Shown here in pieces: positions 2,266-61,214 of a DNA stretch of 64,000 bases (positions are counted from its first letter, which is position 1; the number at the start of each line of letters is the position of its first letter). Where the stretch lies: assembly GCA_964540065.1 (NCBI GenBank), contig CAZIKY010000004.1, positions 16,306 through 80,305 of the forward strand. Reading direction: 5' to 3'. This DNA comes from Candidatus Woesearchaeota archaeon (lineage in GTDB: Archaea; Nanobdellota; Nanobdellia; Pacearchaeales; JAHJTO01). A program made the translations under genes and the position numbers. The notes under the pieces were generated by a model. The model worked only from the letters and a program-made list of their open reading frames with translations. It made no database searches and was not told where the DNA came from.

Positions 2266-2266
2266 T

Positions 2267-42137: not shown

Positions 42138-42138
42138 T
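42127..42138 (+). repeat. 12-nt tRNA-Asp 3'-end sequence (CGGTTGGGGCGT), first copy of a direct repeat
   Basis: The identical 12-mer recurs at 42899-42910, about 770 bp downstream. A possible att-site duplication. Confidence 0.4.
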
Positions 42139-42246
42139 AGTACATTTTTGCATTTTTTATGGGCGTCGAAAGTATGTCATAAACAGTCCAAGATGTTTAT
42201 ATTAAACATAGGTTATATTGAGAAATATAAATTTAAAAAAGAATAT

Positions 42247-42657
42247 TTATTCTGCTATGGATATTCCCCTAACCTTACTTTTTAGATGAGGAAATTCTCT
42301 TAATAGTCTTCTTATACTATTATGAGTCTTAGACAATCCCGGATTAATCTTTAAGGCATCAGTGTAAGATTTTAATGCGTCTTCTGGATAACCAAATCCT
42401 CCTAATATCTCCCCCATATTATTATGAGCATAAGACAATCTCGGATTAATCTTTAAGGCATCAGTGTAAGATTTTAATGCACCTTCAAAATCGCCTTCCT
42501 TATGCAAATCATATCCCTGCGAAAAAATATCTATAGCGTAGTTTAGTGATATCTGTTCTAAAGGAGAGAGTTCAATATTTTTTGGATAACCAAATGACTC
42601 AGCTGTTTCTCTGCTAATAGAATTTCTTTTATTCCCCGCATTATATATTAGTTTCAT
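42247..42657 (-). CDS. TPR repeat protein
   Basis: 136 aa with two nearly identical 34-aa TPR units (ALKSYTDALKINPRLS / ALKSYTDALKINPGLS). Confidence 0.6.
   Translation of the reverse strand: MKLIYNAGNKRNSISRETAESFGYPKNIELSPLEQISLNYAIDIFSQGYDLHKEGDFEGALKSYTDALKINPRLSYAHNNMGEILGGFGYPEDALKSYTDALKINPGLSKTHNSIRRLLREFPHLKSKVRGISIAE
42319..42480. repeat. nucleotide-level tandem duplication (two ~60-nt copies, period 102 nt) inside the TPR gene
   Basis: Copy 1 is at 42319-42378 and copy 2 at 42421-42480. They are about 93% identical and correspond to one duplicated 34-aa TPR unit. Confidence 0.6.
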
Positions 42658-42898
42658 ATAGTATAGATAATCTCCACCTATTTAAATCTTTCTATTTGTT
42701 ACTACTCTCAAGAGATTATAAAACTAGCATGAAAGACTAATTAATTTTATTATCGACAAAAATAAAAAACAATTCTATTTCACCAGAAAATTTTATCTTC
42801 TCATTCTCGACAATTCTTAAAAACTCTGAGAGTATGTAATAATTATGACGTAATAAGAGCGTTTGACGCCCTTTGATTATGCAAAAAGCTCTTCCCTT

Positions 42899-42910
42899 CG
42901 GTTGGGGCGT
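42899..42910 (+). repeat. second copy of 12-nt tRNA-Asp 3'-end direct repeat, within a hairpin-capable element
   Basis: CGGTTGGGGCGT is embedded in GACGCCC...GGGGCGT. That element can form a 6-bp stem, ACGCCC pairing with GGGCGT. Confidence 0.4.
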
Positions 42911-43101
42911 TTCTGGAACTCGAAATTAAATCCGATGCCCATTTATTAAAATGAATCTTTCGGATTTACAAAAAATAAATTTTGATGATTTCCATAAATT
43001 TACTCTTTCTTCTTCCAAAGCAATTTTTATTACTTCTTCATTCTTGGGAAGTTATAGTTTGGTGACCTTCAAAGAACCAGCTATAAAAACTTTTTTAAGT
43101 T

Positions 43102-45117
43102 ATGAATTCTTATAAACGCATGTTAAAAAAGAGGTTTATAGGTCTGATATCTGCTTTTGTTTTTCTGCTTGCAATTTCGGGATTTGCAAATGCTGCAACA
43201 TTAAACGTTAAGCATGATATTACAGTAAATATTCATGAAGATTCATCTTATGATTATGATCATGCATTTACATACAATCCCCGTGAGTATTACAAAAGCT
43301 TTTACTATTTCTTTATACCTGGTAGTTTCAATGATGTTTCTATTACTGCTGACGGAAAGCCTGTGACTATATCTGAAATTACTCCTCCACGATTTAAGGG
43401 AGGATTATTTAGCTACAAAATAATTTCTCCAAACCCCGAAAAGAGCAGTATTTCGGTAAGATTAAAAGCTACTGGAAAATTGATAGAGCTTAACGAAGAA
43501 GGCATTTACAAATTGGAAAATGTTGCTTACCCTGCAACATTTAATCCCTCAACAACAGAAGTTATAGAAATTTTTAATTATCCGAGATCCTGGGATGCGG
43601 TTGCGTACAATAGAGACATACCTTCAATAAATGCAGATAAAGGCCACAATTCGTTGGTACTTAGGTCTAGCGGCTTAAACTCTTTTGTAGGAGTCACTTT
43701 AGTTAATGAGAATGTTTCTGCTGGAATTGAAACTATTCGGAAAGGAGGAGTCACTTTAAAAGTTCAGAACCATTCAAAGCTTAAAGAAGCGGTAAGAATC
43801 GCTTCAGAGAATCTTAATTATGTAAGAAAATTAACTAACGGTGAAATCTTTATCTATGTAGATACTAGGACAGAAGAAGAGTATGGGGGGGCACTGCCTT
43901 CAGCATTTTATTCTTTAGATTCAGCAAGTGGATATATTGAAAACTCATTAAATTATGTCTCTCCGGAAGAAGCTTCTGCAACAATAATCCACGAACTAAA
44001 CCATTTCTCAAATGATGTTAATGATGCCGGGCCATTCCCCGTGTGGCTGGAAGAAGGATTGGCAGAAAATCAAGAATTAAAATATAGTTCAGACAAGTAT
44101 CCCTCTTATGCCTTCAAATCGATACCCCAGAAATGGCAATTGGAAGCATGGTATGGTGATGGAAGTTATTTTGGAGAAAGCAGACTTATAGAACTCCAAC
44201 CTATAGAAGATTACTTCCTATATGCTTTTGTTATAAGGCATTTTGAAGAGAAATATGGAAATGCCGCTTTAGAATCTGCATTATTAGAAATAAATCGTAG
44301 AATGAAAACTGAGAAGCCCGACTTTGAAGGTTTCGTTACTGAAGACTATCAAGAATTTTATGATAGGATAGCAACCGAAGTCTTTGCATCGAGAGTTGGG
44401 GGCAATAAAGAAGATTTCTTCTTCCCAGAAAAAGACCTATTCATTTCAGACCCCCATGCTTTTGAAGAGAAATTATCAAAATTTTACCGGAAGGATTGGA
44501 CTGCCAGAGAGGTTATGTTTGAATGTTTGAGTAATGGACAAGATCCCTTCGAATGTGAAGACCGAGTTTATGGGTCAAAAGCATTGATCGAATCACTCAG
44601 GCCACAGGCGTATATCGCATTCATTGAAGATTATGGCTCTACAAGCGAGGCCATAGAAGCAGGGTTTTTAGAATGGGAAAATAGCCCTGAAAAAGCAGAA
44701 TTAGATGCCGCATTAGAAGCAGAATTGGAAGAGTTTTATCAAAGCGAAATAGAGTCTACTTTCGGAATCGGGATCTTGACAGCAATACTTGCAATATTAA
44801 CATTATTTTTCCCGCATAAAGGCTATCGTAAAGAAATCAAAGAGCTAAAACAAAAAGGCATAAAACTTAAAATAAGGGCTATGATGGGAATTTTATCTTC
44901 ATTCATAGCGTGGATAATACCCTTTATGATATTATTGATGGGAACTACGGCAACATTCAGAGATGGAAGAATATTCTCTGGGATACTGATCATGCTTATA
45001 GCAGTATTTTTGACCCCAACCTTTCAAAAATATTTGAAGAAACAAGATCTTCCTGTCTCCGGTTGGGTTAGGGTAGGATTAGTTGTTCTATCCTTTGTTA
45101 TATTTATATACCTCTAA
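43102..45117 (+). CDS. secreted zinc-metallopeptidase-like protein (HExxH...E, gluzincin-type) with C-terminal TM helices
   Basis: 671 aa with a signal peptide and an HExxH...E pattern (IIHELNHFSNDVNDAGPFPVWLEEGLAE). The last ~100 aa contain 3-4 hydrophobic helices. Confidence 0.5.
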   Translation: MNSYKRMLKKRFIGLISAFVFLLAISGFANAATLNVKHDITVNIHEDSSYDYDHAFTYNPREYYKSFYYFFIPGSFNDVSITADGKPVTISEITPPRFKGGLFSYKIISPNPEKSSISVRLKATGKLIELNEEGIYKLENVAYPATFNPSTTEVIEIFNYPRSWDAVAYNRDIPSINADKGHNSLVLRSSGLNSFVGVTLVNENVSAGIETIRKGGVTLKVQNHSKLKEAVRIASENLNYVRKLTNGEIFIYVDTRTEEEYGGALPSAFYSLDSASGYIENSLNYVSPEEASATIIHELNHFSNDVNDAGPFPVWLEEGLAENQELKYSSDKYPSYAFKSIPQKWQLEAWYGDGSYFGESRLIELQPIEDYFLYAFVIRHFEEKYGNAALESALLEINRRMKTEKPDFEGFVTEDYQEFYDRIATEVFASRVGGNKEDFFFPEKDLFISDPHAFEEKLSKFYRKDWTAREVMFECLSNGQDPFECEDRVYGSKALIESLRPQAYIAFIEDYGSTSEAIEAGFLEWENSPEKAELDAALEAELEEFYQSEIESTFGIGILTAILAILTLFFPHKGYRKEIKELKQKGIKLKIRAMMGILSSFIAWIIPFMILLMGTTATFRDGRIFSGILIMLIAVFLTPTFQKYLKKQDLPVSGWVRVGLVVLSFVIFIYL

Positions 45118-45796
45118 GAAAATTCAATAAGTTATTATAATCATCAACGAGGCGATTATAGTCTTTTCTCAAGTCATTATAATCCATGACTAAATTATTA
45201 TGCTTTGTACGCAATGATTCATATTGTGATAGGAGGAGAGTATACTCTTTTTCTGCAGCTTCAAGATCCGTCTTGGCTTCGGCTTCAGTTTCTTTGACTG
45301 CTTGGAATCCTTTCTTTTCTAGTTCTAAATACTTTTCATTAAGTGAAGTATAACTCGCTTCGGCGCTTCTTAGATCTTCATTCAAGTCAGAGATAATAAA
45401 CTCTAGATCTGAAATCTCTGTTAAAAGTTCGTTTTCTGCTTGATTTGCTAATACTGCGTTTGTAATTAATGCTATGGTGAGGAGGATTATTGTAAAAGTT
45501 GGCAGAACTCTTTTCCATTTTGACCATAAAGCTTTTGATTTTGACACCAATTTAGAATTTTTTTTGAATAAAGCTCTTCTAACAAGTCTTGATCTGCATT
45601 TGGGACATTTTTTTGCAAATAAAAGTTCTTTCCAAGATTTGGCTTTAAAATCCCACTGGTGACTGCACTTCATGCATTTTAGGTGCATTCCCTTTCTCTT
45701 ATCTCTCCACCTTAATAAAAGCGCGGCGATAAATAAGTAAATTATTATCCATCCGACTGTACTTATCTCAAAAATAAATCTAGGACTTTTTTTCAT
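45104..45796 (-). CDS. membrane protein with zinc ribbon (CxxC...CxxC) and C-terminal coiled coil
   Basis: 230 aa with TM - CMKCSHQ...CPKCRS - TM, then a heptad-rich acidic region. Confidence 0.4.
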   Translation of the reverse strand: MKKSPRFIFEISTVGWIIIYLFIAALLLRWRDKRKGMHLKCMKCSHQWDFKAKSWKELLFAKKCPKCRSRLVRRALFKKNSKLVSKSKALWSKWKRVLPTFTIILLTIALITNAVLANQAENELLTEISDLEFIISDLNEDLRSAEASYTSLNEKYLELEKKGFQAVKETEAEAKTDLEAAEKEYTLLLSQYESLRTKHNNLVMDYNDLRKDYNRLVDDYNNLLNFLRGI

Positions 45797-45901
45797 TAAA
45801 ATACCCCCAAGTTTTATGCTCTTTGGAAATTAGTGAAGTATATAATATTTTCGTAAAATGAATAAGAAAAATTTAAATAAATACTCTCCCTTAAAAATTT
45901 C

Positions 45902-46345
45902 ATGAAAAAGAGGAAGAGAAATAAAAAGGTCTTGATATTGTCATCAGCGATTGTTCTAATATTAATTATTTTAGGGATCTTCCTTGCGTTAAATAGCTTC
46001 CAAGAAAAATCTTGGCAAGACTTGATTTCATTCAAGGGAACTGGAAGCATTCAAACAGATCCCTTCAAGATTGAAGGAGATAGGATAAATATGACCTTCA
46101 CAATATATTGCGGGATAGAAAAGTGCCAGAATATCGGTTTTTCGTCATCCGAATTGTGGCAGTATGAAAAAAATCTAAGTATCGCCCCTTCAGACATCGA
46201 TATCAACTATTTCCAAGACCAAGGAGAAATTTCTAAGTCAAGAATTGTAGAATTCCTTGGAGACAGAGAAGCTTGGGGGGAAAATTTTTACTTGAAAATT
46301 AGGTCCGACGTTCCTTGGGAAGTTAAAATTTCTGAGTATGCCTAG
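45902..46345 (+). CDS. small secreted protein (signal peptide), unknown
   Basis: 147 aa with an N-terminal basic plus hydrophobic signal anchor. Confidence 0.4.
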   Translation: MKKRKRNKKVLILSSAIVLILIILGIFLALNSFQEKSWQDLISFKGTGSIQTDPFKIEGDRINMTFTIYCGIEKCQNIGFSSSELWQYEKNLSIAPSDIDINYFQDQGEISKSRIVEFLGDREAWGENFYLKIRSDVPWEVKISEYA

Positions 46346-46386: not shown

Positions 46387-47808
46387 TTATGCGGGATCCA
46401 AATCCTCATATTTTGGGATTCCCATTGCCTTGTGAATACTATCGAGCTGTTTCTGCGTGATCTTTATTTGGGGGGAAGGTTTAGACTTCATCGCTCCGAC
46501 ATAAACTGAAGATCCTGTTTTCTTATCATGGTAGACCTGGGTTCTTCCGGTTTCCAAATGCCTTTCAAATATTGCATCTAAGTCTATACCCTCCGATTCT
46601 TTCTTCTTAACCCTGTAAGGCTCAAGTAATTGCTTGAGAGTCGGCTGTGAAAAGTCTCCTTCAGCCCTAAAAGTATCGAAAAGTACATTCAAAACGCTCA
46701 AGTCTATTTCATTGCTGTAAGGGCCTTTTGGCTCGGCAGAATATCCATTTTTGAATCCTTCAACAAATAATTGGGTCATCCAAGGAGACCTTATATGATC
46801 CTCCAAGAAAGGCTTCCCAGTCATCTCTCTTGGGCTGATTATTCTTGTGCTGCTTGAGATAAGGTCTTTGTACTCTCTCTTTTGCAAAGCTTCTATTTGA
46901 GATTTGGAAAGCTTGTCCACGCTTTCAGAAGAATCAAAGTCTACAAGACCTACTTTTAATTTGTCAGTTCCATTATACAAAACAATGTTTCCTATATGGG
47001 CATTTGTCTGCTCATCTTCTGAACTCCAAGTCTGGCCGCTTTTATCCATTAATCTCTTTAATCTTCCGGTAGTATATCCTACATTCTTCATCAAATCCTT
47101 CACTGCATGATAGAATACCTCGCCCAAATGAGTCCATTGCCCGATATGGACTAAATTCTTCTTCTTTGGATCCCTTATCTTGTGAACTCTTGAAATATAT
47201 AATCCGTCTATGACTCTTACCAACTCATCAAGCCTTGTATCCCCTTTAACTTCAAATAGAGTGGTTACCGGCCTTAAACCTTTGATGGTTAAAGGATATT
47301 TCCATATTCCTACAGTCTTCATTAAAGGCTCTATACCTACACTCTCCAAAACTTTGTTGAATCTATGAGTCATTTCCGCTTCATAGACTGCATTTGTAAA
47401 TTTCTGCCCGCCCCTTATCTCTTTGTAGCCCTCTCCGCTGAAGAGCTGCGGCTCTTTCAGGTCTAAAGAAACCCCTTTAAGCCTGTATAATCCGCGTCCA
47501 GAAAAAATTCTTCTCGGATCATTTACCAAAACAGACCTATGGCCGCTCCATAAGGCAGGAATTACGTCCAGCTTTTTCATATATCTGTATACTTTGAATT
47601 CGGGGTAGAAAAGGTTTCTAATCTCATCCCCATCCAAATAATGCCTAAGAAGCAAATCATCATTTTTGTCCCTTTCGTGTATCTTTGTAACCAAATAGCT
47701 CGGGACAACCCTTGGAGTCTTAAGAAATTCCGGAAGATCACTGTTTACAAAAGATTCCCCTTCAACCCTTTTCAAGAAGGTTTTGTCCCTCTTTATCAAA
47801 AGCTCCAT
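46387..47808 (-). CDS. uncharacterized protein with weak protein-kinase-like catalytic motifs
   Basis: 473 aa with NAHIGNIVLYNGTDKLKVGLVDFDSSE, resembling an Hx(D)xxxxN...DF(D/G) core. The assignment is tentative. Confidence 0.4.
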   Translation of the reverse strand: MELLIKRDKTFLKRVEGESFVNSDLPEFLKTPRVVPSYLVTKIHERDKNDDLLLRHYLDGDEIRNLFYPEFKVYRYMKKLDVIPALWSGHRSVLVNDPRRIFSGRGLYRLKGVSLDLKEPQLFSGEGYKEIRGGQKFTNAVYEAEMTHRFNKVLESVGIEPLMKTVGIWKYPLTIKGLRPVTTLFEVKGDTRLDELVRVIDGLYISRVHKIRDPKKKNLVHIGQWTHLGEVFYHAVKDLMKNVGYTTGRLKRLMDKSGQTWSSEDEQTNAHIGNIVLYNGTDKLKVGLVDFDSSESVDKLSKSQIEALQKREYKDLISSSTRIISPREMTGKPFLEDHIRSPWMTQLFVEGFKNGYSAEPKGPYSNEIDLSVLNVLFDTFRAEGDFSQPTLKQLLEPYRVKKKESEGIDLDAIFERHLETGRTQVYHDKKTGSSVYVGAMKSKPSPQIKITQKQLDSIHKAMGIPKYEDLDPA

Positions 47809-48839: not shown

Positions 48840-49289
48840 TTACTTGGCTTCGTATTCCTCATAAACTTTGAACATTACAGGGGATTCTGAAAGCCTGTCT
48901 TTCATTATCTTTTTGACTTCATCCCACTGAAGTTTGCCATAACCGCATCCTATCTTCGGGATGGCGCATGTTTTAACGCCTTTCTTCTCTAAAAGGTTCC
49001 TGAGCTTTCTTAATGAACCGTTAACATAGCTAAGCTCGGCGTTGTATAGGTTTTCCTGAGTTCCCAAGTAAGCGATTTTTGGGGTATTTTCGGCATCTAG
49101 GATAACTCCTCCCAAATCAAAGCCGTTTCTCCTTAGCTTCTTGAATCTTGAGAATGTTTCGGGCCATTTTATTTTGATCTGTTTGGCTATACCTGTCCCC
49201 ATGTCTTCTACGTTTCCTGCGGCAACCCCATGGGCCAGGACTTCCGCATCGCTTTCAAGTGCGTCCCCCAAACAATATTCTATTGCCAT
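48840..49289 (-). CDS. macro domain protein (ADP-ribose / O-acetyl-ADP-ribose binding or hydrolysing)
   Basis: 149 aa with a Gly-rich phosphate-binding region (LAHGVAAGNVEDMGTGIAKQI) and CAIPKIGCGYGKL, typical of MacroD-like domains. Confidence 0.7.
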   Translation of the reverse strand: MAIEYCLGDALESDAEVLAHGVAAGNVEDMGTGIAKQIKIKWPETFSRFKKLRRNGFDLGGVILDAENTPKIAYLGTQENLYNAELSYVNGSLRKLRNLLEKKGVKTCAIPKIGCGYGKLQWDEVKKIMKDRLSESPVMFKVYEEYEAK

Positions 49290-49692: not shown

Positions 49693-49998
49693 AAACTGTT
49701 AGCCATCCAGGATATTAGTATGTCTTAAGCTCGCTTGTTTATAAACTTTATTATTTTATCACTTTGAAATGACACTTTAAATTGGGAAAAAACTTTTACC
49801 AAAATCCATTTCAACAATCCTTTTATAGCCCCTTTATTCATTTGAATCATGATAATTAGGATTGTTTCCTACAATGTGCTTCTGATCATTTCCCGGTTTG
49901 GGCAGACCTCGAGATACCCAAAAGATGCTAATATTGGTCTAATTTTTCTTACCAAAACATTTAAATAATTGTTGTCACCTAAAAATGAATACGGCACG

Positions 49999-52095
49999 AT
50001 GGGAAAGAGCCTTTTATCTTTAATTTTGGGAGCAGCTATTCCTTTGGGATTTGCTGCAAATATCAGTGCTTCTGATAGTTCCGCTAGTAATTCTAAAGAA
50101 GACAGCTGCAAAACTGCAAGCTATCAAGAGTTTGAAGGGGAAAATGACAGAGTTTCCAAGTTTTTCCAGACTTTCTCTGAAAAACCCGATGAAAAAGTTG
50201 ACAAACTCCTTGAAAAAGGAGAGTATGCTCATGCTTTGAGCTACATTGATAAAGTCGAAGGTGAATTAAACGGCCTTTCTTCACAGCTCAGGCTTCTGAA
50301 AGAAAAATATCCGGCTTTAGAATCGCTTTTTAAGAAGACCCTTCCGAATAATTTTGCGTTCCAGAGATGCAAAATAAAGACAGACAATGAGACTTTTAAT
50401 AAAGGGCAGCTGCTTTTGGACAAATCTGCCCACATTCTTACAACTTCCGACTGGAGTTTATCCGGAGATTTGACTGCTTATGAAAATGCATTAAGCACTG
50501 TTTCTGAAGTTGCGAGCCAATATGCCGGAATTTCCAGCTTAACTTTGAACCAGCTTGATGACGGCGAATTCAAATCCTTGGAAAAAAGGATTTCTGAAAA
50601 AGAGTTAAGTTTGGCTTCTGAGAAAGACGGAAGGCTGAAGTTTATTGAATTCTTAGCAGACAGCGGAGATGCTGTCGTTGAGATGTACAGCGTAGATTTC
50701 TCAGATTTGGATAAAGCAAGAGAAGCTGTTGAAATTTCCTCGGGGGTAATCAATCGTGCTAAAGGCATAATCTCTGAGTATAACCTTCAGCATAAGGAGA
50801 CAATGACTTCTGTCTCTCTATGGGAAAGCCAAAGGGAGAATCTTGTTAAAGGAATAGCCCTGAAAGAAGAAGAACTTCGATTAGAAAGGGAAGCAGTCAA
50901 GAAAGCTGAAGAGGCCGTCTTTGGAAAGGATGAAGTAGAAAATGGCTTGAAGGAAGAGCCAAAGGAAATTCTTGGCGTAGAAGAAAGAATCAAGAGAAAA
51001 GAAGAAAACATGCCAAGCTATAATCAGGCTCTAGGGTATGTTAAAACAGCAGATATGCTCAATAAAGAAGGAAATTATATCGGGGCAAGAGTATTCTATT
51101 CTAAGGCAAGGGAATTGCTTAAGAATTCGCAATCTAGGGAAGATTGGGAAAATACCTTGAACGATCTTGAAGGCAAGATTCATTCTAATGAAACTCAAAA
51201 AAGATTAAGCGATAAGCTTGAAATTGCAAGAAGGCAGAAGTTAGGCAAAAACGGATGGTATAACTTCGAATCAGCATATCATTTTGAAAGCTCCAAAGGA
51301 GATACTCGAGCTGAATTGTCCGGATTTACCAATGTTTTGGATCTTAGGCCAGTTTTCGCCTTGCCCAAATCAAAAAGATTCAACTTGGCTCCGATATTCC
51401 GCGCTGAGCAGGAAGTATTGAGCGGCGAAGCAGAGAATACTGCAAAGATTAATGAACGTTCTGAAAGATCTCTTGAATTAGGTTTAGGGCTTGGATTTAA
51501 AGGGACATATCTTTCTGCAGGAGCAGTTTGGCAAAACGCAAGCAGAGAAGTTGCTCCATATAATATCCCATTCAATATAACTTCAAACGCCTCTGAAAGC
51601 TCATTGGGATTGGGATTAAGGGCATGGACAAATTTCCTGCTCAATTCAAGGCTTGAAGTAGCCTACAGGCAGGCATCTGGAAATCTTGATGAAGAGACAT
51701 ACAGAAATGGTACTTTAACTAAACAAACTTCATCCCCATTAGAGACCCAAAGATTCTCATTAAGCGGGCAGGTCAGCCCGGTTGAGAGCCTTACCTTGGG
51801 ATTAAATTATGATCATCTCTCCAAGGAAGTGAGAAGGGCAACTTCAAAATCAGATAGTAAGAGCGATATATTGAAATTTTCTGTTTACGCCACCCCATTC
51901 AACCTTATTCCTAAAGGTTATATCCCAAAATCAAGAGCAGGGAGAGGCTTCTTAAACGAGCTTAGGCAATTAGGCTTTGGAGGATCATATTCCAAGAACA
52001 GATTTACCGGGGGAGATTCTGAAAGATACTCTTTGGAGTTCAGATATCCTCTTAAGCAGCCGTTAAGAAGAGATAGTTCAAAAAATGAAAATTAA
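49999..52095 (+). CDS. secreted coiled-coil protein with beta-strand-rich C-terminal domain
   Basis: Signal peptide (MGKSLLSLILGAAIPLGFAANISA), a long Lys/Glu coiled-coil middle and a C-terminal ~300 aa with alternating hydrophobic and Gly patterns (LELGLGLGF, SLGLGLRAW, LTLGLNY). Overlaps the next gene by 11 nt. The ORF track begins at 49969; the ATG at 49999 is preferred because the signal peptide starts there. Confidence 0.5.
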   Translation: MGKSLLSLILGAAIPLGFAANISASDSSASNSKEDSCKTASYQEFEGENDRVSKFFQTFSEKPDEKVDKLLEKGEYAHALSYIDKVEGELNGLSSQLRLLKEKYPALESLFKKTLPNNFAFQRCKIKTDNETFNKGQLLLDKSAHILTTSDWSLSGDLTAYENALSTVSEVASQYAGISSLTLNQLDDGEFKSLEKRISEKELSLASEKDGRLKFIEFLADSGDAVVEMYSVDFSDLDKAREAVEISSGVINRAKGIISEYNLQHKETMTSVSLWESQRENLVKGIALKEEELRLEREAVKKAEEAVFGKDEVENGLKEEPKEILGVEERIKRKEENMPSYNQALGYVKTADMLNKEGNYIGARVFYSKARELLKNSQSREDWENTLNDLEGKIHSNETQKRLSDKLEIARRQKLGKNGWYNFESAYHFESSKGDTRAELSGFTNVLDLRPVFALPKSKRFNLAPIFRAEQEVLSGEAENTAKINERSERSLELGLGLGFKGTYLSAGAVWQNASREVAPYNIPFNITSNASESSLGLGLRAWTNFLLNSRLEVAYRQASGNLDEETYRNGTLTKQTSSPLETQRFSLSGQVSPVESLTLGLNYDHLSKEVRRATSKSDSKSDILKFSVYATPFNLIPKGYIPKSRAGRGFLNELRQLGFGGSYSKNRFTGGDSERYSLEFRYPLKQPLRRDSSKNEN

Positions 52096-55000
52096 GACCA
52101 ATAAAGGCGAATGGAAAACCTTGAAGGCTTTCGCATCAGTGTTAATCCTTTTAGCTGTAGTTCCTGGAGTTCTTGCAGCTTTGATAACTCCTTCAAATCC
52201 AGACACTACCGCCAATCTTGCATTTGATATTTCAAACCCTTCGCAATATGTCTATAAATGGTTTAGAGATGGGGTGGAACTTTCGGGAGAAACTGGCTCA
52301 ACTTTGAGCTCTTCATACACTTCTAGGGGGAATACCATCCTTGCAGAAGCTTACTTGAATATTTTAGGAGATTTGGTCTTCATCGATAATGCCCAAACAA
52401 CCATAGTCAATGCTGTTCCTTCAACCCCTACAGTTTATTTCTCTCAAAACAGTTATTTTGCGGATTCAAACATTACTGTTACTGCATCAAGCACCGATGC
52501 AGATAATGATGCCTTGACTTACACTTACACTTTCTATGTTAATGGGTCTTCTACTCCTTCCCAGAACTCCACTTCCAATGTCTTTAACTGTCTAGGGAGC
52601 TGCAATAAAGGCGGAACTGTAAGCGTTACAGTAGTTGCTAATGATGGTTTTACTAATTCCAATTCAGCAAGCAATCAGACTTCAATAGTTAATTCTCCCC
52701 CGGTTATTGGTTTAATTACGGTTTTGCCAAGCACGGTTTTGATCAATAGCACACTTAATGTTACGGCAAGCGTGCTTGATGTTGATGGAGATAACCTCAC
52801 AACAACTTTCCAGTTTTACAACTTGAATGATTCTTCAGTTTTGCAGAACTTCTCTAGCAATAATCTGCTTAATCTTTCGATAAATGATGCCCATAATACC
52901 ATAAGGGTTACAGTTAACTCCACTGATGGAGCCAATGTTACTTCAAGCTTCACAGATGTTGTAGTCTCTAACTCTTTGCCTCTTTGGAGCTTGGGAAATT
53001 TGAGCTTTAACCAAGATACAAATCTTTCAGTTAACTTTTCCGGAAATGTTTCTGATCTTGAGAATGATAGCCTTAATTTCAGCGCGGTTGGTTCCCAGAA
53101 TATTACTGCAAGTCTTAATGGAACTACTTTGACACTTGTTCCAGACAGCGGGTTTATCGGAACTCAGACAGTAAACTTGACTGCTGATGATGGGTTCGGG
53201 AACAGCACACAAGTTTTATCTATAACAGTTTTTGATACAACCCCTCCGGTGCTAAACATTACTGCCCCAACTAATGGACAGCTTTTCAACACTACAAATA
53301 ACGTGACTTTAACATTTACTGTTTCAGACAATGGGGTTCTAGATACTTGCAGATACACCTCTTCATTTGATTCCGGAGGTAATTTGAACTGCACCCTTGG
53401 AAGTTACAACTTTACGAATATGGTTAATGGGAATCATTCTGTGACTGTTTTTGCAAATGATTCAAGGGGAAACTCAGCCAATCAAACAGTTAACTTTACA
53501 GTTAACTTCAACTCCGCCCCTTCAATTGCTTCCTTGAATTTAACTCCAAGCTCTCCAACCACTGCCAACAACTTAAATGCCACATTCAACTTAACAGATG
53601 TTCAGCAGACTTCGCTTACTGCTTTCTATAATTGGTATAATAATGGAGTATTGAACCAAAGCGGAAGCACAAGTGCAACAAGCGGAGCCTTGGCTTCAGT
53701 AATTCTAAGCTCTGGAAATACATCTAAAGGCCAAAATTGGACCTTTGAACTGATCCCTTCAGATGGATTGCTAAATGGAACTGCTCAGAATGTTAGCCTT
53801 GTTGTTGTAAATACTGCCCCTACTTCTTCAAACATTTCCGCACAGACTTGGCAGGAAAATCAGAATTTGACTTTGAACTTGAGCTTATATTTCAGCGATG
53901 CTGATTCAGATGACCTAAGTTTCACAAGCACAAGCCCTGCAAACATCACTGTTTTGATAAACAACTCGACTAATACTTTAACTTTAGTCCCTGATGCTAA
54001 TTTTGTCGGAAAGAGAAACTTAACTATTACGGGATTTGACACTGAAAATGCAAATGTTACTAGCAATACATTCGATCTTTATGTCGGTTTCAGCGTGGTT
54101 ATCAATTCTTATGTAAATGGAACTTTTTATCCTACGGGAAACTATACAAATATCGCGGGATTGGAAACTTCCACTTTGAATGTTTCCAATATAACTGGCC
54201 CTACAATCAGTGTTTTGGATTCTACAATAACCAACTCCACAATAGTTGACTCATCTATGAATAACTGCACCGTTACAGACAGCACAGTTATTGGATCTCC
54301 TTGCTTGAATGCAGTTATTGATCCTTCTGATGTAAGATACAGCAATGCCACAGGAAGCACAGTTTTGGATTCCACAATACATTACAGCAATGCAACAAAT
54401 TCGTTTGTCAATCAGACTTCGATCTACAATTCAAGCATTGATGGCTCAAACATGACTCTTGCAACTTTGACAAATGTTACTATGACTGGATCAACCGTGT
54501 TGAACAGCACATTGAGCAATACAGTTATTGGAAGCGCAAACATAACAAATGGAGTGGTTTACAGCGGAACAATCTTGATGGCTAATGGTTCTACTTACAA
54601 TGCAACTTCTCAGGGCGCCTTGAATTTGACCTCTGCAGTCAATTATGCTCCGAATGCTGTGATAAGCTCCCCGATCTCCGGAAGCTTTAACACTGGAAGC
54701 GCGATTTCATTTGTTTCCGGAAGCACAGATTCAAATGTCGGAGGGTCATTGAATGATACATTGACTTTCTTCTGGAATTTCGGGGACGGAACAAATGCAA
54801 CCACTGAAAATGCCACACATACTTACTCGAGCGATGGAGTTTACACTGTCGTCTTGACAGTTACAGACAGATTTAATTCCACAGATAATGCTACGGTCAC
54901 CTTAACCTTATCCACGCCTTCTTCCGGAAGCGGAGGCAGCGGAGGCGGAGGCGGTGGAGGAGGCGGAAGCAGCACTCCCGCAGTATTTACAGTAACCCTT

Positions 55001-55507
55001 ACAGAACCGGTTTCAAAAGATCTGTCTGTTGGACAATCAATATCCTTCGACTTCTTGGGAGAGAAGCATTCAGTTACCTTAGAACAAGTAACTCAGACTA
55101 ATGTAAGAATTAAGGTACAATCTACTCCAGTATTTGCCACTTTGGCTGTGGGGGAGACGGGCAAGTTTGACCTGAATGGGGATGGAATTTATGATCTTGC
55201 AGTTACCTTAGAACAGAGGCTTTCCAGCCTTAAGGCTAAGCTTAAGTTTGCATTGATCTCTGAACCGATAGAAAAAGCCGAAGTAAAGGAAGAGCCTAAG
55301 GAAGAAGAGAAAGTGGAAGAGACTGAAGAAACAGAAGCCGAGGAAACCCAAACTGAAGAAGAAACTAAGTTCGATTTCAAGTCTTTGACTGGAAAGGTTA
55401 CAGAAACTTTATCAAAGGTCTCTAAGAATACTTGGATTTCAGTCGGGGCAGTTGTAGCCTTGTTAATACTTACATTTTTACTTTATAGAGTACTTTACTC
55501 TAATTAG
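52085..55507 (+). CDS. giant cell-surface protein (1140 aa): Asn/Ser/Thr-rich, Ig-like/beta-helix-like repeats, PKD domain, Gly linker, acidic stalk, C-terminal TM anchor
   Basis: Features, in order: a signal peptide; dense N-x-S/T sequons; a repeated LTLVPD(S/A)xF(I/V)G module (two copies); parallel beta-helix-like NxT/NxS repeats; a PKD signature (FWNFGDGTNATTENATHTYSSDGVYTVVLTVTD); a GSGGSGGGGGGGGG linker; an EEKVEETEETEAEE acidic stretch; and a C-terminal TM (ISVGAVVALLILTFLLY). Confidence 0.6.
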   Translation: MKIKTNKGEWKTLKAFASVLILLAVVPGVLAALITPSNPDTTANLAFDISNPSQYVYKWFRDGVELSGETGSTLSSSYTSRGNTILAEAYLNILGDLVFIDNAQTTIVNAVPSTPTVYFSQNSYFADSNITVTASSTDADNDALTYTYTFYVNGSSTPSQNSTSNVFNCLGSCNKGGTVSVTVVANDGFTNSNSASNQTSIVNSPPVIGLITVLPSTVLINSTLNVTASVLDVDGDNLTTTFQFYNLNDSSVLQNFSSNNLLNLSINDAHNTIRVTVNSTDGANVTSSFTDVVVSNSLPLWSLGNLSFNQDTNLSVNFSGNVSDLENDSLNFSAVGSQNITASLNGTTLTLVPDSGFIGTQTVNLTADDGFGNSTQVLSITVFDTTPPVLNITAPTNGQLFNTTNNVTLTFTVSDNGVLDTCRYTSSFDSGGNLNCTLGSYNFTNMVNGNHSVTVFANDSRGNSANQTVNFTVNFNSAPSIASLNLTPSSPTTANNLNATFNLTDVQQTSLTAFYNWYNNGVLNQSGSTSATSGALASVILSSGNTSKGQNWTFELIPSDGLLNGTAQNVSLVVVNTAPTSSNISAQTWQENQNLTLNLSLYFSDADSDDLSFTSTSPANITVLINNSTNTLTLVPDANFVGKRNLTITGFDTENANVTSNTFDLYVGFSVVINSYVNGTFYPTGNYTNIAGLETSTLNVSNITGPTISVLDSTITNSTIVDSSMNNCTVTDSTVIGSPCLNAVIDPSDVRYSNATGSTVLDSTIHYSNATNSFVNQTSIYNSSIDGSNMTLATLTNVTMTGSTVLNSTLSNTVIGSANITNGVVYSGTILMANGSTYNATSQGALNLTSAVNYAPNAVISSPISGSFNTGSAISFVSGSTDSNVGGSLNDTLTFFWNFGDGTNATTENATHTYSSDGVYTVVLTVTDRFNSTDNATVTLTLSTPSSGSGGSGGGGGGGGGSSTPAVFTVTLTEPVSKDLSVGQSISFDFLGEKHSVTLEQVTQTNVRIKVQSTPVFATLAVGETGKFDLNGDGIYDLAVTLEQRLSSLKAKLKFALISEPIEKAEVKEEPKEEEKVEETEETEAEETQTEEETKFDFKSLTGKVTETLSKVSKNTWISVGAVVALLILTFLLYRVLYSN

Positions 55508-55515
55508 GAGATAAA

Positions 55516-55809
55516 ATGGCGATAGATTTAGATCATTTGGCTTATGACGTTGCAAATTTTGCACATAGTTCTTGGGAGCCTACCAGCATAGATGCAATAA
55601 TTCGCGGCCCAAGACCGTATTATTACTGCTGGACTGAAAAGGAAGGAATGGATATCCTTACTTTTACTGATCCAAGCAAACCTGAAACAGCAAAACTTTT
55701 CAGATACAGCCATAGACAGATCAGAAAAGGAGCAGATTTGGCTAATGATAAGCCAAAGCTTACCGGAAAGGAGGTTGTAAGGTTCTTAAGAGAATACTTG
55801 AAGAAATAA
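55516..55809 (+). CDS. hypothetical protein (operon member 1 of 5)
   Basis: 97-aa ORF starting 9 nt after the giant surface-protein gene and abutting the next ORF. Confidence 0.4.
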   Translation: MAIDLDHLAYDVANFAHSSWEPTSIDAIIRGPRPYYYCWTEKEGMDILTFTDPSKPETAKLFRYSHRQIRKGADLANDKPKLTGKEVVRFLREYLKK

Positions 55810-56328
55810 ATGGGATTGGAAGGAAAAATGCGCGCAGATGAAATTGTGGAAAAAGCAAATATGTCATGTCGTCCGGAATATTACAGCGGCCGAGGTGCAA
55901 CATCAAGCGACCTTAACGATAGAATATTAGAAAATATCTATAAAGAGGTCGAAAAAGAGCATGGAGAAAAGGCTGCAGGACAATTTGCCCAGATGGTAGC
56001 AGATATTCCAAAATTATCTGCGACAGATTTCTTGCTTACACTATACAGATTAGAGGCCCATGATTGGAAATGGGATAAAATGTTATTGGGCAGAGAAAAA
56101 GGAGTTTATCTTGATGGAAAAGATATGGGTGCAAAGGTTGGTAGTGGTATTGGAACAATTGTAAGTGTTTTTGGCGGCCTTAATGACCGAGATGAAACCA
56201 GGTATATTCGCGGAAGATTTTTAGAAAGGCATGGAATCCGGCAGCCAGAGGATATAAACGGCCCTTATGGAAGTCAACCTTACCGAGACGTTCAAAGACA
56301 TAGATCAAAGAAAACTAGGAGAAGATAA
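55810..56328 (+). CDS. hypothetical protein (operon member 2 of 5)
   Basis: 172-aa ORF with a basic C-terminal tail. Confidence 0.4.
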   Translation: MGLEGKMRADEIVEKANMSCRPEYYSGRGATSSDLNDRILENIYKEVEKEHGEKAAGQFAQMVADIPKLSATDFLLTLYRLEAHDWKWDKMLLGREKGVYLDGKDMGAKVGSGIGTIVSVFGGLNDRDETRYIRGRFLERHGIRQPEDINGPYGSQPYRDVQRHRSKKTRRR

Positions 56329-56329
56329 A

Positions 56330-56758
56330 ATGGGAATAATGGATATGGGAGATGGAAGAATATATCAGACCGGCCCTGATGGAGAAATGAAACCTATTCA
56401 TCCCGAGAACTTTTCGCTTTCAATACAGGACAGAAAGATTGCAGAATATGACAAGAATAAAGGCCTTCTATCTTTAGATATGAGTGAGGGAGATTTAGAG
56501 AAACTTATTGCAATGTTAGGAATTACGCCTAAAGGAAAGGATATTTCTCTACCTCTGCCTCCATTCGGACATCAGCAGTATTTTGAGGGAGTCAGAGAGA
56601 TGAAATCCCTTTACAAAGAAGGCCCATATACAATAAAATTAGTTGATGGAGATGGACAAAATCCTTCTGATAATAAATCGAATTCAACTCCACAAACAGC
56701 TAGATATCAAGATAAGCCTAAAGGCTTATTTGATCGATTAAGAGACTATTTTAAGTAA
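56330..56758 (+). CDS. hypothetical protein (operon member 3 of 5)
   Basis: ATG at 56330, 2 nt after the previous stop (MGIMDMGDGRIYQ...). The ORF track begins at an upstream in-frame alternative start at 56267. Confidence 0.4.
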   Translation: MGIMDMGDGRIYQTGPDGEMKPIHPENFSLSIQDRKIAEYDKNKGLLSLDMSEGDLEKLIAMLGITPKGKDISLPLPPFGHQQYFEGVREMKSLYKEGPYTIKLVDGDGQNPSDNKSNSTPQTARYQDKPKGLFDRLRDYFK

Positions 56759-56759
56759 A

Positions 56760-57164
56760 ATGGTGCAAAGTTTAACATTAATGATTGAAGGGGAAATAAC
56801 CCAAAAAATATTAAATGAAATCAATTTGAAAGTAACTCCAGATTACATAAAGAAAAAACTAAAACCTCTAAAGAAGTTAGAAAAGGAATGTGATGGATGC
56901 AGGTTTACAATAAGAGATTGCGCAGATTCTTATGCTAGGGGGATCCCAACAGAAGATGATACCTTAAAAAGAACCCCTGAAGGATTTTACGGCCTGGCTT
57001 CTGGATGCCAAGTTTACAGTAAGATTGTAGTCAAAGCAATTGCGTTGAAGGGAATTCAGGAAGTTCTCAAGAGTAATGGGATAAAATCCAGAATGGGCTA
57101 TTGGGATATTGATGATTTCAGCCGAAAGTATCTTGTCCATCAGGGAGTCATAAGGGAAAGATAA
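56760..57164 (+). CDS. hypothetical protein with Cys cluster (operon member 4 of 5)
   Basis: 134 aa with CDGCRFTIRDC...C. Confidence 0.4.
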   Translation: MVQSLTLMIEGEITQKILNEINLKVTPDYIKKKLKPLKKLEKECDGCRFTIRDCADSYARGIPTEDDTLKRTPEGFYGLASGCQVYSKIVVKAIALKGIQEVLKSNGIKSRMGYWDIDDFSRKYLVHQGVIRER

Positions 57165-57165
57165 A

Positions 57166-57579
57166 ATGAGCAGATTGAAGGAATTGCTTGACTCAGAATT
57201 GAAGGACAAAAGCTCTTCGCATGTTCCTGTAGAGAGATTGGTCCAGACTGTTGGGGAGAAAGAGAGCTTCATCAGACTCGGAAGAGGGCTTTTTTATCCG
57301 GATGTCGGAGTTTATGGGGACTGGTCTGAAAAAGAGAAAGAAGTCGTCAGAAAAATTATGTTCGCCAGAGAGCAAGGGCATTCCCTGGGCCATGAATTTG
57401 GAAGGGCAATGACCGGATACGATGATCCTAATGTTGCCAAATATAAAGAAGCTTACTCTGCTATTGATTCTCTAAGTCCGGGAGATCTGGCTAAAGTCAA
57501 AGTTGAAGAAAAGGAATATTTTATTGCGGCTTTTCCTGCTGGAGGGCCCGCAACCGCTTTGGCGTTATTTGTAAAGTAA
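57166..57579 (+). CDS. hypothetical protein (operon member 5 of 5)
   Basis: 137-aa ORF, 1-nt spacing from the previous gene. Confidence 0.4.
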   Translation: MSRLKELLDSELKDKSSSHVPVERLVQTVGEKESFIRLGRGLFYPDVGVYGDWSEKEKEVVRKIMFAREQGHSLGHEFGRAMTGYDDPNVAKYKEAYSAIDSLSPGDLAKVKVEEKEYFIAAFPAGGPATALALFVK

Positions 57580-57600: not shown

Positions 57601-58566
57601 TCAGAACATCTCGATCTCGTTTCTTATGTGCACGATGTCATAGCTCCTTATGATATCTGAGAAATTTTCTTTCAAAGCGTGCATCAATTCCAAGATGTCA
57701 TTGTAATTATCAACGACTATGTCAAATTCAAGCATGTATCGGCTCATGACTTCGCTTATCTTTATGACTTTGACATGATCCAAGAGATGCTTCTTTAGCT
57801 CCTCAAACCTTTTTTTGTCGTAGATGAAAGGATCTAAAAGGATCTTATAATGGACCTTGCCTATCTTCCTCCAGTCAACTCTTACTCCGTATCCTTTTAT
57901 CAGCTGGGCCTGCTCCATCTTTTTCATCCTTCTTATGATTGTCTTTGGATCTGTGTTCAGCTTTGAGGCCAAAGTGACATAATTTACCTTGAAAGTCCCT
58001 TCTAATTCTCTAATTATCTTCCAATCTTTCTCATCCAAGGTTATCTTTTCCTGTTTGTTCTTCCATGAAATCTCTGTACTGCCTTTTTTGCCCCCAAAAA
58101 GGCTGTATGAAAGGTAATTCCTTTTGACTATTATGTCAAAATGATCTTCCAGTATGTACTTTCCGTATTTTTCCTCTAAAGATAGTACTAAATCATGCAG
58201 ATTGTTTATGTTATTGGTAGCAATTTCAATAACTAAGTCGAAATAGTTGTCCACTTGGTAAATTCTTTTGACATCTTCTTTCTTTTTTATGAAGTCGATT
58301 ATTTCTTGCTCCTTTTTTGGGCTTGCGTTGCTTAGTTTTATTAAAACTCTTATCCAATTGGAATATAGCTGGGTGTAATCGATTATTGGAACGAAGTTCT
58401 TGATTATCCCCTCTTTGATCAGCTTGTTTATGTTGTAGTGGATAACTTGCTTGCTCTTGTTAAGCATCTTTGACATCCGAGGATAGCTCATTCTGCTGTT
58501 TATGCTTAATAGGTGCAGGATATCCTGTTCAGTCTTGGTTAATGCCATATTGTAATAAAATGGCAT
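57601..58566 (-). CDS. tandem-duplicated Lrp/AsnC-type transcriptional regulator (two HTH + two effector-like domains)
   Basis: Two HTH_AsnC-like segments: DILHLLSINSRMSYPRMSKMLNKSKQVIHYNINKLIKEGII and DWKIIRELEGTFKVNYVTLASKLNTDPKTIIRRMKKMEQAQLI. Each is followed by a ~90-aa domain. Confidence 0.55.
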   Translation of the reverse strand: MPFYYNMALTKTEQDILHLLSINSRMSYPRMSKMLNKSKQVIHYNINKLIKEGIIKNFVPIIDYTQLYSNWIRVLIKLSNASPKKEQEIIDFIKKKEDVKRIYQVDNYFDLVIEIATNNINNLHDLVLSLEEKYGKYILEDHFDIIVKRNYLSYSLFGGKKGSTEISWKNKQEKITLDEKDWKIIRELEGTFKVNYVTLASKLNTDPKTIIRRMKKMEQAQLIKGYGVRVDWRKIGKVHYKILLDPFIYDKKRFEELKKHLLDHVKVIKISEVMSRYMLEFDIVVDNYNDILELMHALKENFSDIIRSYDIVHIRNEIEMF

Positions 58567-58662: not shown

Positions 58663-58974
58663 ATGAAAATGATGAAAAAAATTGGACTAATCGGACTGCT
58701 TGGAGTAGCGGCAGTTTCTGGTTCCGGATGCACTAAGAATGATATATCTAAGATTGGGGAAGATGTTAAAATTACTCGACCAGAAAACTGTGCAACTGTG
58801 CAGGATCTCAGATATGAATTCGGTTACGCGAATAGAGATTATCAAATTCTATGCAAAGATAAAAGCGGCAATCTAGCACTCTATAGGAGAGATAGAAGTG
58901 AAGACTCCTGGACTAAGATTTATGTAGCTGATGCAGAATACGGAGCTGCAAAATGCCAGGAGGATGGGAGATAA
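58663..58974 (+). CDS. small lipobox-containing secreted protein
   Basis: 103 aa with a signal peptide ending AAVSGSGC (lipobox-like) and four further Cys. Confidence 0.45.
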   Translation: MKMMKKIGLIGLLGVAAVSGSGCTKNDISKIGEDVKITRPENCATVQDLRYEFGYANRDYQILCKDKSGNLALYRRDRSEDSWTKIYVADAEYGAAKCQEDGR

Positions 58975-58975
58975 A

Positions 58976-60085
58976 ATGGCAAGCAAAAAACAAAGTCACG
59001 AATTTGAAGGAAATGAAAGTGGAGATGCTCCCTTAAAGAAGAGCCTCTTGGAGAAAGTTCTTACTTATACTGGCGGAGCGATCTTAGGAGGAACAATTTT
59101 CCTTGGAACTTGTGTCAGCTACGTCAAGCCGGATCACTTTGGAATAAAACAGGTGGAGATGTCTCCATTTGGATTGCTCGGAGGCAAGGGAATCCATAGT
59201 GAAGTTTATGACACTGGATATCATGTAGTCCTGCCTTTGTTTGAAAAAATGCATATGCTTCCAAAAGATAAGCAAGTGCTTTACTTGAACCGAGAAAAAG
59301 GATTGACTGCTGAGGAGCAGAAGTATTCCACTGAAGTGGCTCCTGCAAACATTCAGACTTCTGATGGGTTCTACATTACATTAGATGCTTCCATCATTTA
59401 CAAGATAAAAGATCCTTACAAGGTTATCACGACTCTTGGAGCTGGAAGGCTATTTGAGCAGAATGGAATAATTCCAAAAGCAGAGCCTGCTTTAAAGGAA
59501 GCTTTGGGAATAATGAATCCCGAAGATTTTTACAACAGCCCGCTTAGGGTCGAGAAGCAGGAGACTGCTAAAGACTTGCTTAATCGGCTGCTTGAACCAA
59601 AAGGTGTGCATGTGGAACATGTCTTGATAAGATACCCCGAATACCATAAAGAAGTTCAGGCTAGAATTGAAGGAAGGAAACTTCAAGACCAGCTAGTCTA
59701 CACTAACCAGTCAAAGGCAAAGGAAAGATCTGCGCAGGCGCAGTTCCAGAAAATGACTGAAGAAGGTCTTGCTGATAAAAAAGTCAAGGAAGAAGAAGGA
59801 AAAGCTTACATTACAATGAAAAACGCAAGCCGAGACCTTTACACCAGAAAGAAAAAGGCGGAAGCCGACAAGCTCGTTAAGTTAGCTGAAGCTAAGAGAA
59901 CCGAGCTCGTGAATGAAGCTTACAGAGGAGAAGGTTCAGAGAAGCTTCTTGGTATGGAAATGGCTGAAGTGCTTAAGGGAGTAGATAATGTCATCATAAC
60001 TACTGGAAAAGAGCAGGGATTCAACCCTCTCGATCTTGAGAGTTTGATGAAGATGTGGAATATCAAAGATGGAGGAAAAAAGTAA
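58976..60085 (+). CDS. SPFH/band-7 domain protein (HflK/stomatin-prohibitin-like)
   Basis: Start taken at the ATG (MASKKQ...) preceded by GGAGG. The ORF track begins upstream at 58931. It has a TM helix, then an SPFH core (FGIKQVEMSPFGLLGGKGIHSEVYDTGYHVVLP...ITLDASIIYKI) and a coiled-coil tail. Confidence 0.7.
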   Translation: MASKKQSHEFEGNESGDAPLKKSLLEKVLTYTGGAILGGTIFLGTCVSYVKPDHFGIKQVEMSPFGLLGGKGIHSEVYDTGYHVVLPLFEKMHMLPKDKQVLYLNREKGLTAEEQKYSTEVAPANIQTSDGFYITLDASIIYKIKDPYKVITTLGAGRLFEQNGIIPKAEPALKEALGIMNPEDFYNSPLRVEKQETAKDLLNRLLEPKGVHVEHVLIRYPEYHKEVQARIEGRKLQDQLVYTNQSKAKERSAQAQFQKMTEEGLADKKVKEEEGKAYITMKNASRDLYTRKKKAEADKLVKLAEAKRTELVNEAYRGEGSEKLLGMEMAEVLKGVDNVIITTGKEQGFNPLDLESLMKMWNIKDGGKK

Positions 60086-61214
60086 AATGAATAAAGAATC
60101 AATTAAGGAATATGTAATAAATGCTTTTGAGAGGGTTATGAAAAATCCTAAAGCAGTCATTGGGGGAGCAATAACTGCTCTTTCTCTGGCATACTTTGTT
60201 GCGGGTTCGATACACAAAACAGGAACCACAGAAATAGGTGTCAGGACTAGGAAAGTAAGCTTGTTCAACAAGAAAGGAGTAGAACAGAGAATCTACCAGC
60301 CCGGATCGACATACTTCTTCCCGCCATTGATAAATGACTGGACTACTTATGACACCAAATTAGTCAATGTAGAGATGAATGCAGACACTAATGAGGGAAA
60401 TGTTGGAGTTTCAGATGACCTGGCTTTTAAGACAAGAGATGGAAATGATATCAATCTGGATGTTGTCTTCTCTTACAGGATAGATCCTGAGAAAGCTCCG
60501 CAGATACTTCAATATGTTGCTTCCTCTTCGGACGAACTTGAAAATAAGATCTTCTGGGCAGTTGCAAGGAGCAAGCCTAGAGATATCTTTGGGGAACTTT
60601 CTTCTGAGGAATTCTATCAGGCAGAGAAAAGAAATGAGTCTGCCGAGAAGGCGAAGAAAGAGCTTGAGAAAATCCTTCAGCCTTATGGGGTTATAATTGA
60701 GAAGGTTGCACCTAAAGATTACAGGTTCAATCCAAGGTATGCTGAAGCTATCAAAGACAAGAAACTTGCTGATGCAAAGACTCTGGAGTATCTTTCTCAG
60801 ACAAATGCGCAGAAAGAAGAGAATGTAAGGCTTTTGAGAGAAGCGGAAGGTTCGGTGAATGAGATGATTGCGAAGGTAGATGGAGCTTACAAGCAGGCAG
60901 TGCTTGAAGCAGATGCTTACTATAATCAGCAGCAGAAAATTGCGGAAGCGATAATTGCTGAAGGGCAGGCTGAAGCGAAAGCAATAAAGGCCGCGAGAGA
61001 AGCGATGACCAGCACTGGGGGAAGCACTTTAGTCAAAATGAAGATTGCTGAAAATCTTAAGGGAAAGAAAATCATAATGGTTCCAACAGGATCCCAATCT
61101 GGTGGAGGAATAAACTTCCAGACTTTGAATGTGAATGATTTCCTTAAGACTTACGGGGCGAAAACCCTTGCAGATGAAGCTGAGCAGTCAACTGCTACGC
61201 ACAAGAACAAGTAA
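60069..61214 (+). CDS. SPFH/band-7 domain protein (HflC-like partner)
   Basis: 381 aa with TM - SPFH core (TEIGVRTRKVSLFNKKG...LDVVFSYRI) - coiled coil. Overlaps the previous gene; an alternative start is the ATG at 60087. Confidence 0.7.
   Translation: MEEKSKMNKESIKEYVINAFERVMKNPKAVIGGAITALSLAYFVAGSIHKTGTTEIGVRTRKVSLFNKKGVEQRIYQPGSTYFFPPLINDWTTYDTKLVNVEMNADTNEGNVGVSDDLAFKTRDGNDINLDVVFSYRIDPEKAPQILQYVASSSDELENKIFWAVARSKPRDIFGELSSEEFYQAEKRNESAEKAKKELEKILQPYGVIIEKVAPKDYRFNPRYAEAIKDKKLADAKTLEYLSQTNAQKEENVRLLREAEGSVNEMIAKVDGAYKQAVLEADAYYNQQQKIAEAIIAEGQAEAKAIKAAREAMTSTGGSTLVKMKIAENLKGKKIIMVPTGSQSGGGINFQTLNVNDFLKTYGAKTLADEAEQSTATHKNK

Follow-up and report, generated by a model that had tools for sequence, protein, structure and literature searches.

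A compact seven-gene string in a DPANN archaeon: five mutually unrelated small-protein families behind a predicted surface-protein pair

Archaeal genomes contain "superoperons", in which genes of unrelated function are lined up in the same direction in long rows; the exosome-proteasome-RNase P string is an example, and these strings are conserved across archaea. A string of seven plus-strand open reading frames (ORFs), designated O1 to O7, was analyzed at positions 49999-57579 of a 64-kb stretch (hereafter the window) of contig CAZIKY010000004.1 from a Candidatus Woesearchaeota archaeon. Like the superoperons this string is packed, probably co-transcribed and apparently without a common function; unlike those conserved strings, the seven-gene order O1-O7 was absent from all other genomes examined. 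The product of its second gene, O2, resembles a class of proteins which is typical of DPANN archaea. Surface proteins with Ig/PKD-like and beta-helix parts, predicted for example for Nanobdella aerobiophila, have been proposed to serve in surface interactions, and the class is commonly put forward as a source of host-contact candidates (bioRxiv 10.1101/2023.10.27.564410). O2 is likewise large, modular, sequon-rich, predicted to be exported and encoded by a small-genome archaeon; it differs in that it is known here from sequence, no sequence tie to a specific characterised member was found, and its beta-helix part falls below family thresholds. An initial annotation of this DNA had named O2 as a candidate for host attachment, which is a reasonable inference. 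O2 is not new in kind and is a further DPANN host-contact candidate.

We consider it likely that the locus as a whole is a compaction-driven, lineage-specific string in which the small genes O3-O7 are independent neighbours under one promoter. Genome compaction would have placed these five independent genes behind the O1-O2 pair. A single transcript would start from the TATA-like box at 49960, with the exported pair O1 and O2 as its first two cistrons; in O2, an acidic stalk would bear the Ig-like and PKD modules, with surface contact as a plausible role. The products of O3-O7 would be unrelated soluble cytoplasmic proteins and not a machinery devoted to assembling, secreting or modifying O2. 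The string and its promoter-like box are composed as follows.

49960-49967, plus strand: TATA-box-like sequence TTTAAATA, starting 39 nucleotides (nt) before the O1 ATG
49999-52095, plus strand: O1, 698 amino acids (aa), orphan with a signal-like N-terminus; alternative TTG start at 49969
52085-55507, plus strand: O2, predicted surface protein of 1140 aa
55516-55809, plus strand: O3, predicted soluble protein of 97 aa
55810-56328, plus strand: O4, predicted soluble helical protein of 172 aa; begins on the base after the O3 stop
56330-56758, plus strand: O5, predicted soluble protein of 142 aa; 1 nt after the O4 stop; longer ORF from 56267
56760-57164, plus strand: O6, predicted soluble protein of 134 aa; 1 nt after the O5 stop
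57166-57579, plus strand: O7, predicted soluble protein of 137 aa; 1 nt after the O6 stop

O3 to O7 are real conserved coding genes, each with a homologue family of its own; the initial annotation had allowed that they might be unconserved or non-coding in relatives. Homologues of O3, O5, O6 and O7 were collected by an exhaustive HMMER search with concatenated queries and were 26-58% identical to the query. At 50% identity clustering, the O3 family comprises approximately 29 cluster representatives (28-58% identical), the O5 family approximately 14, the O6 family approximately 7, with a conserved MVQSL N-terminus, and the O7 family approximately 19, with a conserved C-terminal LVLFVK. For O4, 187 cluster matches were obtained at 90% identity clustering, which were 50-64% identical and shared the motifs RPEFYSGRGA and IPKLSATDFL. 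The five families are mutually unrelated, the hhalign probability being 3% or less for every pair. No match was found in Pfam, NCBIfam, PHROG, PADLOC or the PDB, even when the families were used as profiles, in agreement with the initial annotation, which had recognised no family among them. Hydropathy analysis of O3-O7 revealed neither a transmembrane (TM)-like segment nor a signal-like N-terminus, and family scans gave no glycosyltransferase, peptidase, sortase, chaperone or ATPase signature. Based on these features all five products are predicted to be soluble and look cytoplasmic. Among the by-products of the analysis are five conserved small-protein families for which there is no Pfam model, and corrected starts for O5 and O6.

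The genomic context of the families was compared in approximately 50 loci overall. These included 34 genome or metagenome loci and nine viral-contig loci for O4, L037/L054, L035 and L053 for O7, L036 and L038 for O6, L049 and L051/L052 for O5, and L039 and L050 for O3. A metagenome scan for O7 yielded two loci. Each was searched by tblastn with the window proteins and by hmmsearch of the five family profiles over six-frame ORFs. Synteny across relatives, which the initial annotation had proposed as a check, was not conserved: two of the five families occurred together in 0 of the approximately 50 loci (none within 10 kb), each family was found alone, and the conserved neighbourhood expected of a functional cluster was therefore missing. 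Relatives of O1 were absent from these loci, for O2 there were only weak matches to Ig domains, at a distance of several kb and on the other strand, and no member of the O3-O7 families adjoined a large surface-protein gene.

What did surround the homologues varied from family to family. Across 37 non-redundant loci O4 had no recurrent neighbour, save within closely related Clostridia genomes, and other genes flank its nearest relative (L001, 64% identity). Next to the closest O7 homologue (56% identity) the place of O6 is taken by a divergent metallophosphoesterase-like gene, recognised by eye from its GDIHGD...GNHE motifs. Other neighbours were RNase J at an O6 locus, a DegT aminotransferase at an O3 locus and NucS at an O5 locus. 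In L049 the O5 homologue ends a superoperon of the exosome-proteasome type, with genes for Rpp14, proteasome alpha, SBDS, Rrp4, Rrp41/42 and RpoK, and an acetyltransferase gene is present too; homologues of both O5 and O7 sit among housekeeping genes. The O7 family is tandemly duplicated in L037, a marine metagenome contig (625-1092 and 1102-1569), where the paralogues lie within a run of small genes matching no family (182-3934).

The distribution of O4 extends well beyond DPANN archaea. Its cluster matches come from Nanoarchaeota, Woesearchaeota, Pacearchaeota, some metagenome-assembled genomes (MAGs) of Clostridia and viral contigs of IMG/VR. At approximately 40% identity, homologues were found in MAGs of gut Clostridia, Pyrinomonadaceae and Muribaculaceae (loci L025-L032 and L040-L048, the viral ones included). 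In one Clostridia MAG (L025) the homologue has an ordinary chromosomal context of Peptidase_C26, a uridine-kinase-family protein and PheRS, and in a Pyrinomonadaceae MAG it has a methylase/ParB context. Nine IMG/VR contigs carry O4, six of them 178-405 kb in length; the 405-kb contig (L041) is clearly of phage origin, its O4 homologue being separated by 6 kb from a T4-type capsid-assembly scaffold gene. No match to O4 was found in GenBank phages and no structural relative was detected, and the bacterial and phage neighbours of its homologues give no functional hint. O4 is more safely described as an undescribed small helical family common to DPANN archaea, some Clostridia and large uncultivated phages.

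All seven genes are present in the ORF list, and the ORF list bears out both the plus-strand arrangement and the 11-nt overlap between O1 and O2 that had been reported initially. The junctions are tight, as had also been noted; the spacers from O2 to O7 amount to 8, 0, 1, 1 and 1 nt with the corrected O5 start (0-9 nt in the initial annotation). For O1 the earlier description of a 708-aa secreted protein stands as to the signal-like N-terminus and fails as to the length: the 708 aa are counted from the TTG at 49969, and the ATG at 49999 gives 698 aa. The latter was taken as correct because the TTG directly follows the TTTAAATA box at 49960-49967 and precedes the point where transcription likely starts, and because the deposited NCBI product (P0197) has 698 aa. 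The start of O5 is most likely the ATG at 56330, which gives 142 aa instead of 163, since all 14 family representatives align from residue 22 on and an AGGAG motif is located 9 nt upstream. A start of O6 at 56760, giving 134 aa instead of 127, is supported by the MVQSL N-terminus kept in its homologues; the deposited start lies seven codons later. The deposited start codons of O5 and O6 both look wrong. Each of the seven products has an entry in the public protein collection, where it is a singleton at 90% identity. Gaps of 10 nt or less were observed in 21 of 45 same-strand neighbour pairs (47%) of a crude gene set for the 64-kb window, so that tight spacing alone says little.

The TATA-like motif TTTAWATA was searched in the window, where 25 copies were found as against 12.5 +/- 4.1 in shuffles, among them those at 9263, 39829, 45872, 49960 and 61558 on the plus strand and at 13988, 19185 and 42679 on the minus strand. 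When the positions were compared with ORF and tRNA coordinates, several copies were located approximately 30-40 nt upstream of gene starts or of a tRNA. This placement suggests that they are TATA boxes and that first cistrons have short leaders or none. The copy at 49960 is the sole plus-strand TTTAWATA between 49.9 and 57.6 kb. The internal genes of the string are preceded by Shine-Dalgarno-like motifs or stop-start junctions. The AGGAG before O3 overlaps the O2 stop codon, that of O5 has been given above, and an AGGAG/AGGGA...ATAAAATG context is common to the O3, O5 and O7 starts and turned up again among the short direct repeats (families D7 and D12). These contexts and the stop-start junctions are compatible with a polycistronic mRNA with a short-leader or leaderless first cistron. 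No plus-strand terminator-like site was detected in 49.3-58.7 kb by a scan whose models are bacterial and not meaningful for an archaeon. The seven genes lie on the same strand with short or overlapping junctions, one promoter-like box and no detected terminator site, as a single transcription unit would, and O1-O7 probably form one transcript from the TATA-like box at 49960. The initial annotation, which had strongly suggested one transcript, is in accord with this.

The O2 ORF is uninterrupted and intact; the gene is therefore not a pseudogene, and the frameshift or decay that had been considered as an objection was not observed. Near its N-terminus O2 has a hydrophobic segment (residues 11-39 in Kyte-Doolittle windows). 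Ig-like domains and a stretch that may be a beta-solenoid come next, followed by the PKD domain, a linker rich in Gly, one more domain, an acidic stalk and, at the C-terminus, a TM anchor. Two of these features were placed as follows.

54692-54904, plus strand: PKD domain of O2, residues 870-940; PKD_4 at 63.9 bits (cut-off 27; E = 1.4e-17)
55424-55504, plus strand: predicted C-terminal TM anchor of O2, residues 1114-1140; Kyte-Doolittle window 2.29

Residues 870-940 also matched the PKD family at 33.4 bits (cut-off 23.5), and Big_9 was matched at 42.3 bits (cut-off 23.6), with Big_7 and Cadherin_4 just under their cut-offs. NCBIfam gave adhesin-repeat matches only, all of them sub-threshold. 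Residues 640-870 yielded only sub-threshold matches to pentapeptide and CfAFP (antifreeze beta-solenoid) families, and a beta-helix or beta-solenoid stretch is plausible there. The number of N-X-S/T sequons was 69, twice the chance level of 34 +/- 4.6 in composition-matched shuffles, and O2 is probably heavily N-glycosylated. The sequon richness, Ig-like and PKD domains and C-terminal TM segment claimed at the outset were thus all recovered. With a PKD match above the curated threshold, a predicted export segment and a predicted membrane anchor, O2 has the features of a PKD-domain surface protein (Pfam PF18911 / PF00801) and appears to be a type-I-anchored, adhesin-like protein. Only some seven residues follow the hydrophobic core of the anchor, and cytoplasmic proteins would for that reason have little of O2 to contact. 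Inspection by eye of the end of O2 (...LLYRVLYSN) revealed no PGF-CTERM-type motif. In comparison with structures, residues 850-945 align with the PKD domains of the closest solved relatives, clostridial collagenase ColH and a Methanosarcina mazei surface-layer protein (PDB 1L0Q), with E values of 1e-9 to 2e-6; these proteins share only this one module of approximately 90 residues with O2, which has a TM anchor and neither a collagenase nor a beta-propeller part.

O1 begins with hydrophobic signal-like residues 4-24, followed by a Glu/Lys/Leu-rich helical region and by a C-terminal third in which Gly, Ser, Asn and aromatic residues are more frequent, and it has no C-terminal anchor. No homologue besides itself was found among 8000 candidates in a word-indexed protein search, no relative in JGI metagenome contigs and no match in the PDB, and Pfam gave sub-threshold matches only. 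A single-sequence AlphaFold (AF2) model showed mostly helices to approximately residue 414; its predicted local distance difference test score of 35.8 is low and the model is uninformative on the C-terminal part. The coiled-coil description given to O1 initially is plausible, whereas the score of a strand-alternation heuristic, which bears on the beta-rich part of that description, was not above shuffles. O1 is predicted to be an orphan exported protein. Its layout, a signal-like N-terminus and a long Glu/Lys/Leu-rich helical region before a C-terminal part with short alternating stretches containing Gly and aromatic residues, may be compared with that of surface anchors which combine a coiled coil with a beta-barrel in diderm bacteria, such as trimeric autotransporters and the OmpM/SlpA type. 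No homology to such anchors was detected, the C-terminus of O1 does not end in an aromatic residue, and its host is an archaeon, in which an outer membrane or beta-barrel assembly machinery (BAM) is not expected. The cell surface is the most likely place of action of O1 and O2, and a role in contacting other cells or substrates is plausible.

The same arrangement could be read as a functional operon, with the five small proteins assembling, exporting or modifying O2, as the initial annotation had proposed. A shared strand, spacers of 0-8 nt, stop-start junctions, Shine-Dalgarno-like motifs and a single upstream TATA-like box would all suit such an operon, as would the fact that O3-O7 are real and conserved. 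The loci, however, showed no synteny of O3-O7 with each other or with surface proteins elsewhere; the five products lack TM segments, signal peptides and enzyme or chaperone signatures, and face an O2 tail which is almost nil; O4 also occurs in Clostridia and phage-like contigs with no adjoining surface protein; and nearly half of the same-strand neighbours in the window are spaced equally tightly. An accessory role for O2 is unsupported because the proteins look cytoplasmic, have no relevant domains, are unlinked elsewhere and, in the case of O4, are also found in bacteria and viral contigs, and we regard this reading as quite improbable. Very little credence is given to the related proposal that five dispersed, DPANN-wide small proteins were recruited behind O1 and O2 to form a co-expressed host-interaction operon; if it were true, cell-cell contact might, for example, involve the small proteins as cargo or regulators, with the C-terminal domain of O1 acting at the partner's envelope. 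It is also unlikely that O3-O7 constitute a cytoplasmic complex or pathway of their own, independent of O1 and O2 and merely sharing their promoter. Their contiguity, with junctions of 0-1 nt, and the presence of all five families in DPANN-type archaeal contigs speak for it. Against this, no two of the families lie within 10 kb of each other elsewhere, the only duplication being that of the tandem O7 paralogues in L037, and the family sizes differ (187 clusters at 90% for O4 and approximately 7 at 50% for O6, counts which come from different databases).

Several points weigh against the compaction-driven string of independent genes that we favour. Co-transcription is read from motif scans alone and, if real, would mean co-expression, as in a functional module. 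The independence of the small genes is argued from their distribution and not from biochemistry. Few contexts were sampled for O3, O5, O6 and O7, two to three loci each and several of them on contigs of 2.5 kb or less, and the nearest relatives are remote, at most 64% identical for O4 and 58% for the others. There is also a slight chance that the small genes were recruited to O2 in this lineage alone. The string of independent genes nevertheless carries a caution for annotation: genes that lie close together in one direction in a compact DPANN genome, even if probably co-transcribed, need not share a function, and an annotation of the five genes behind O2 as accessory factors should be avoided.

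A viral origin was considered as well, in which the region, or the part of it with the small genes, would be what is left of a virus or mobile element once integrated here. IMG/VR contigs carry relatives of O4, in one case together with a T4-type capsid scaffold gene; between 43 and 57.6 kb many genes are unannotated; and a tRNA-Asp gene and a low-GC stretch are located at 42-46 kb. PHROG, on the other hand, gave no significant match for O1, O3-O7 and three upstream ORFs, and for O2 a single marginal match to a family of unknown function. PADLOC gave no match for O1 or O3-O7, and Pfam scans of the tested ORFs revealed no integrase or other mobile-element family. No direct (att-like) repeat of the tRNA end was found, and the GC content at 50-57.6 kb matches the rest of the window (0.37-0.42, as against approximately 0.40 throughout). 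O3, O5 and O7 had no viral-contig relatives at the sensitivity reached, O4 had none in GenBank phages, and the O5 and O7 homologues lie among housekeeping genes. With no att repeat, GC shift, or PHROG or PADLOC matches, a prophage or island was rejected, and we consider a mobile-element remnant highly improbable.

The host is archaeal, since the window holds a full-length group II chaperonin gene (Cpn60_TCP1, thermosome) and an intron-containing tRNA. The best matches of the most conserved protein of the region are labelled Nanoarchaeota, Woesearchaeota or Pacearchaeota. A tRNA of approximately 133 nt at 32281-32413, identified by Rfam and missed by ARAGORN, presumably bears an intron. Further upstream of the string, the tRNA-Asp gene occupies 42065-42138 and is followed by the low-GC stretch (0.32-0.34) within 42065-46000. 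A tandem repeat of 2 x 102 nt lies at 42280-42483 inside a minus-strand ORF (42247-42657), and the large ORFs at 43102-45117 and 46387-47808 matched no family.

Just upstream of the string, the minus strand codes for a stand-alone Macro-domain protein of 149 aa (48840-49289) beside ORFs with no family match. Convergent to the string and 21 nt past the end of O7 is a minus-strand gene (57601-58566) for a 321-aa protein with two AsnC-type winged helix-turn-helix modules. A 319-aa protein with the same double AsnC architecture was found in L003 (1-37), approximately 10 kb from the O4 homologue, which is probably a coincidence. Just downstream of the string a small lipoprotein-like ORF (58663-58974) precedes two tandem overlapping SPFH/Band 7 paralogues of 384 and 381 aa (58931-61214).

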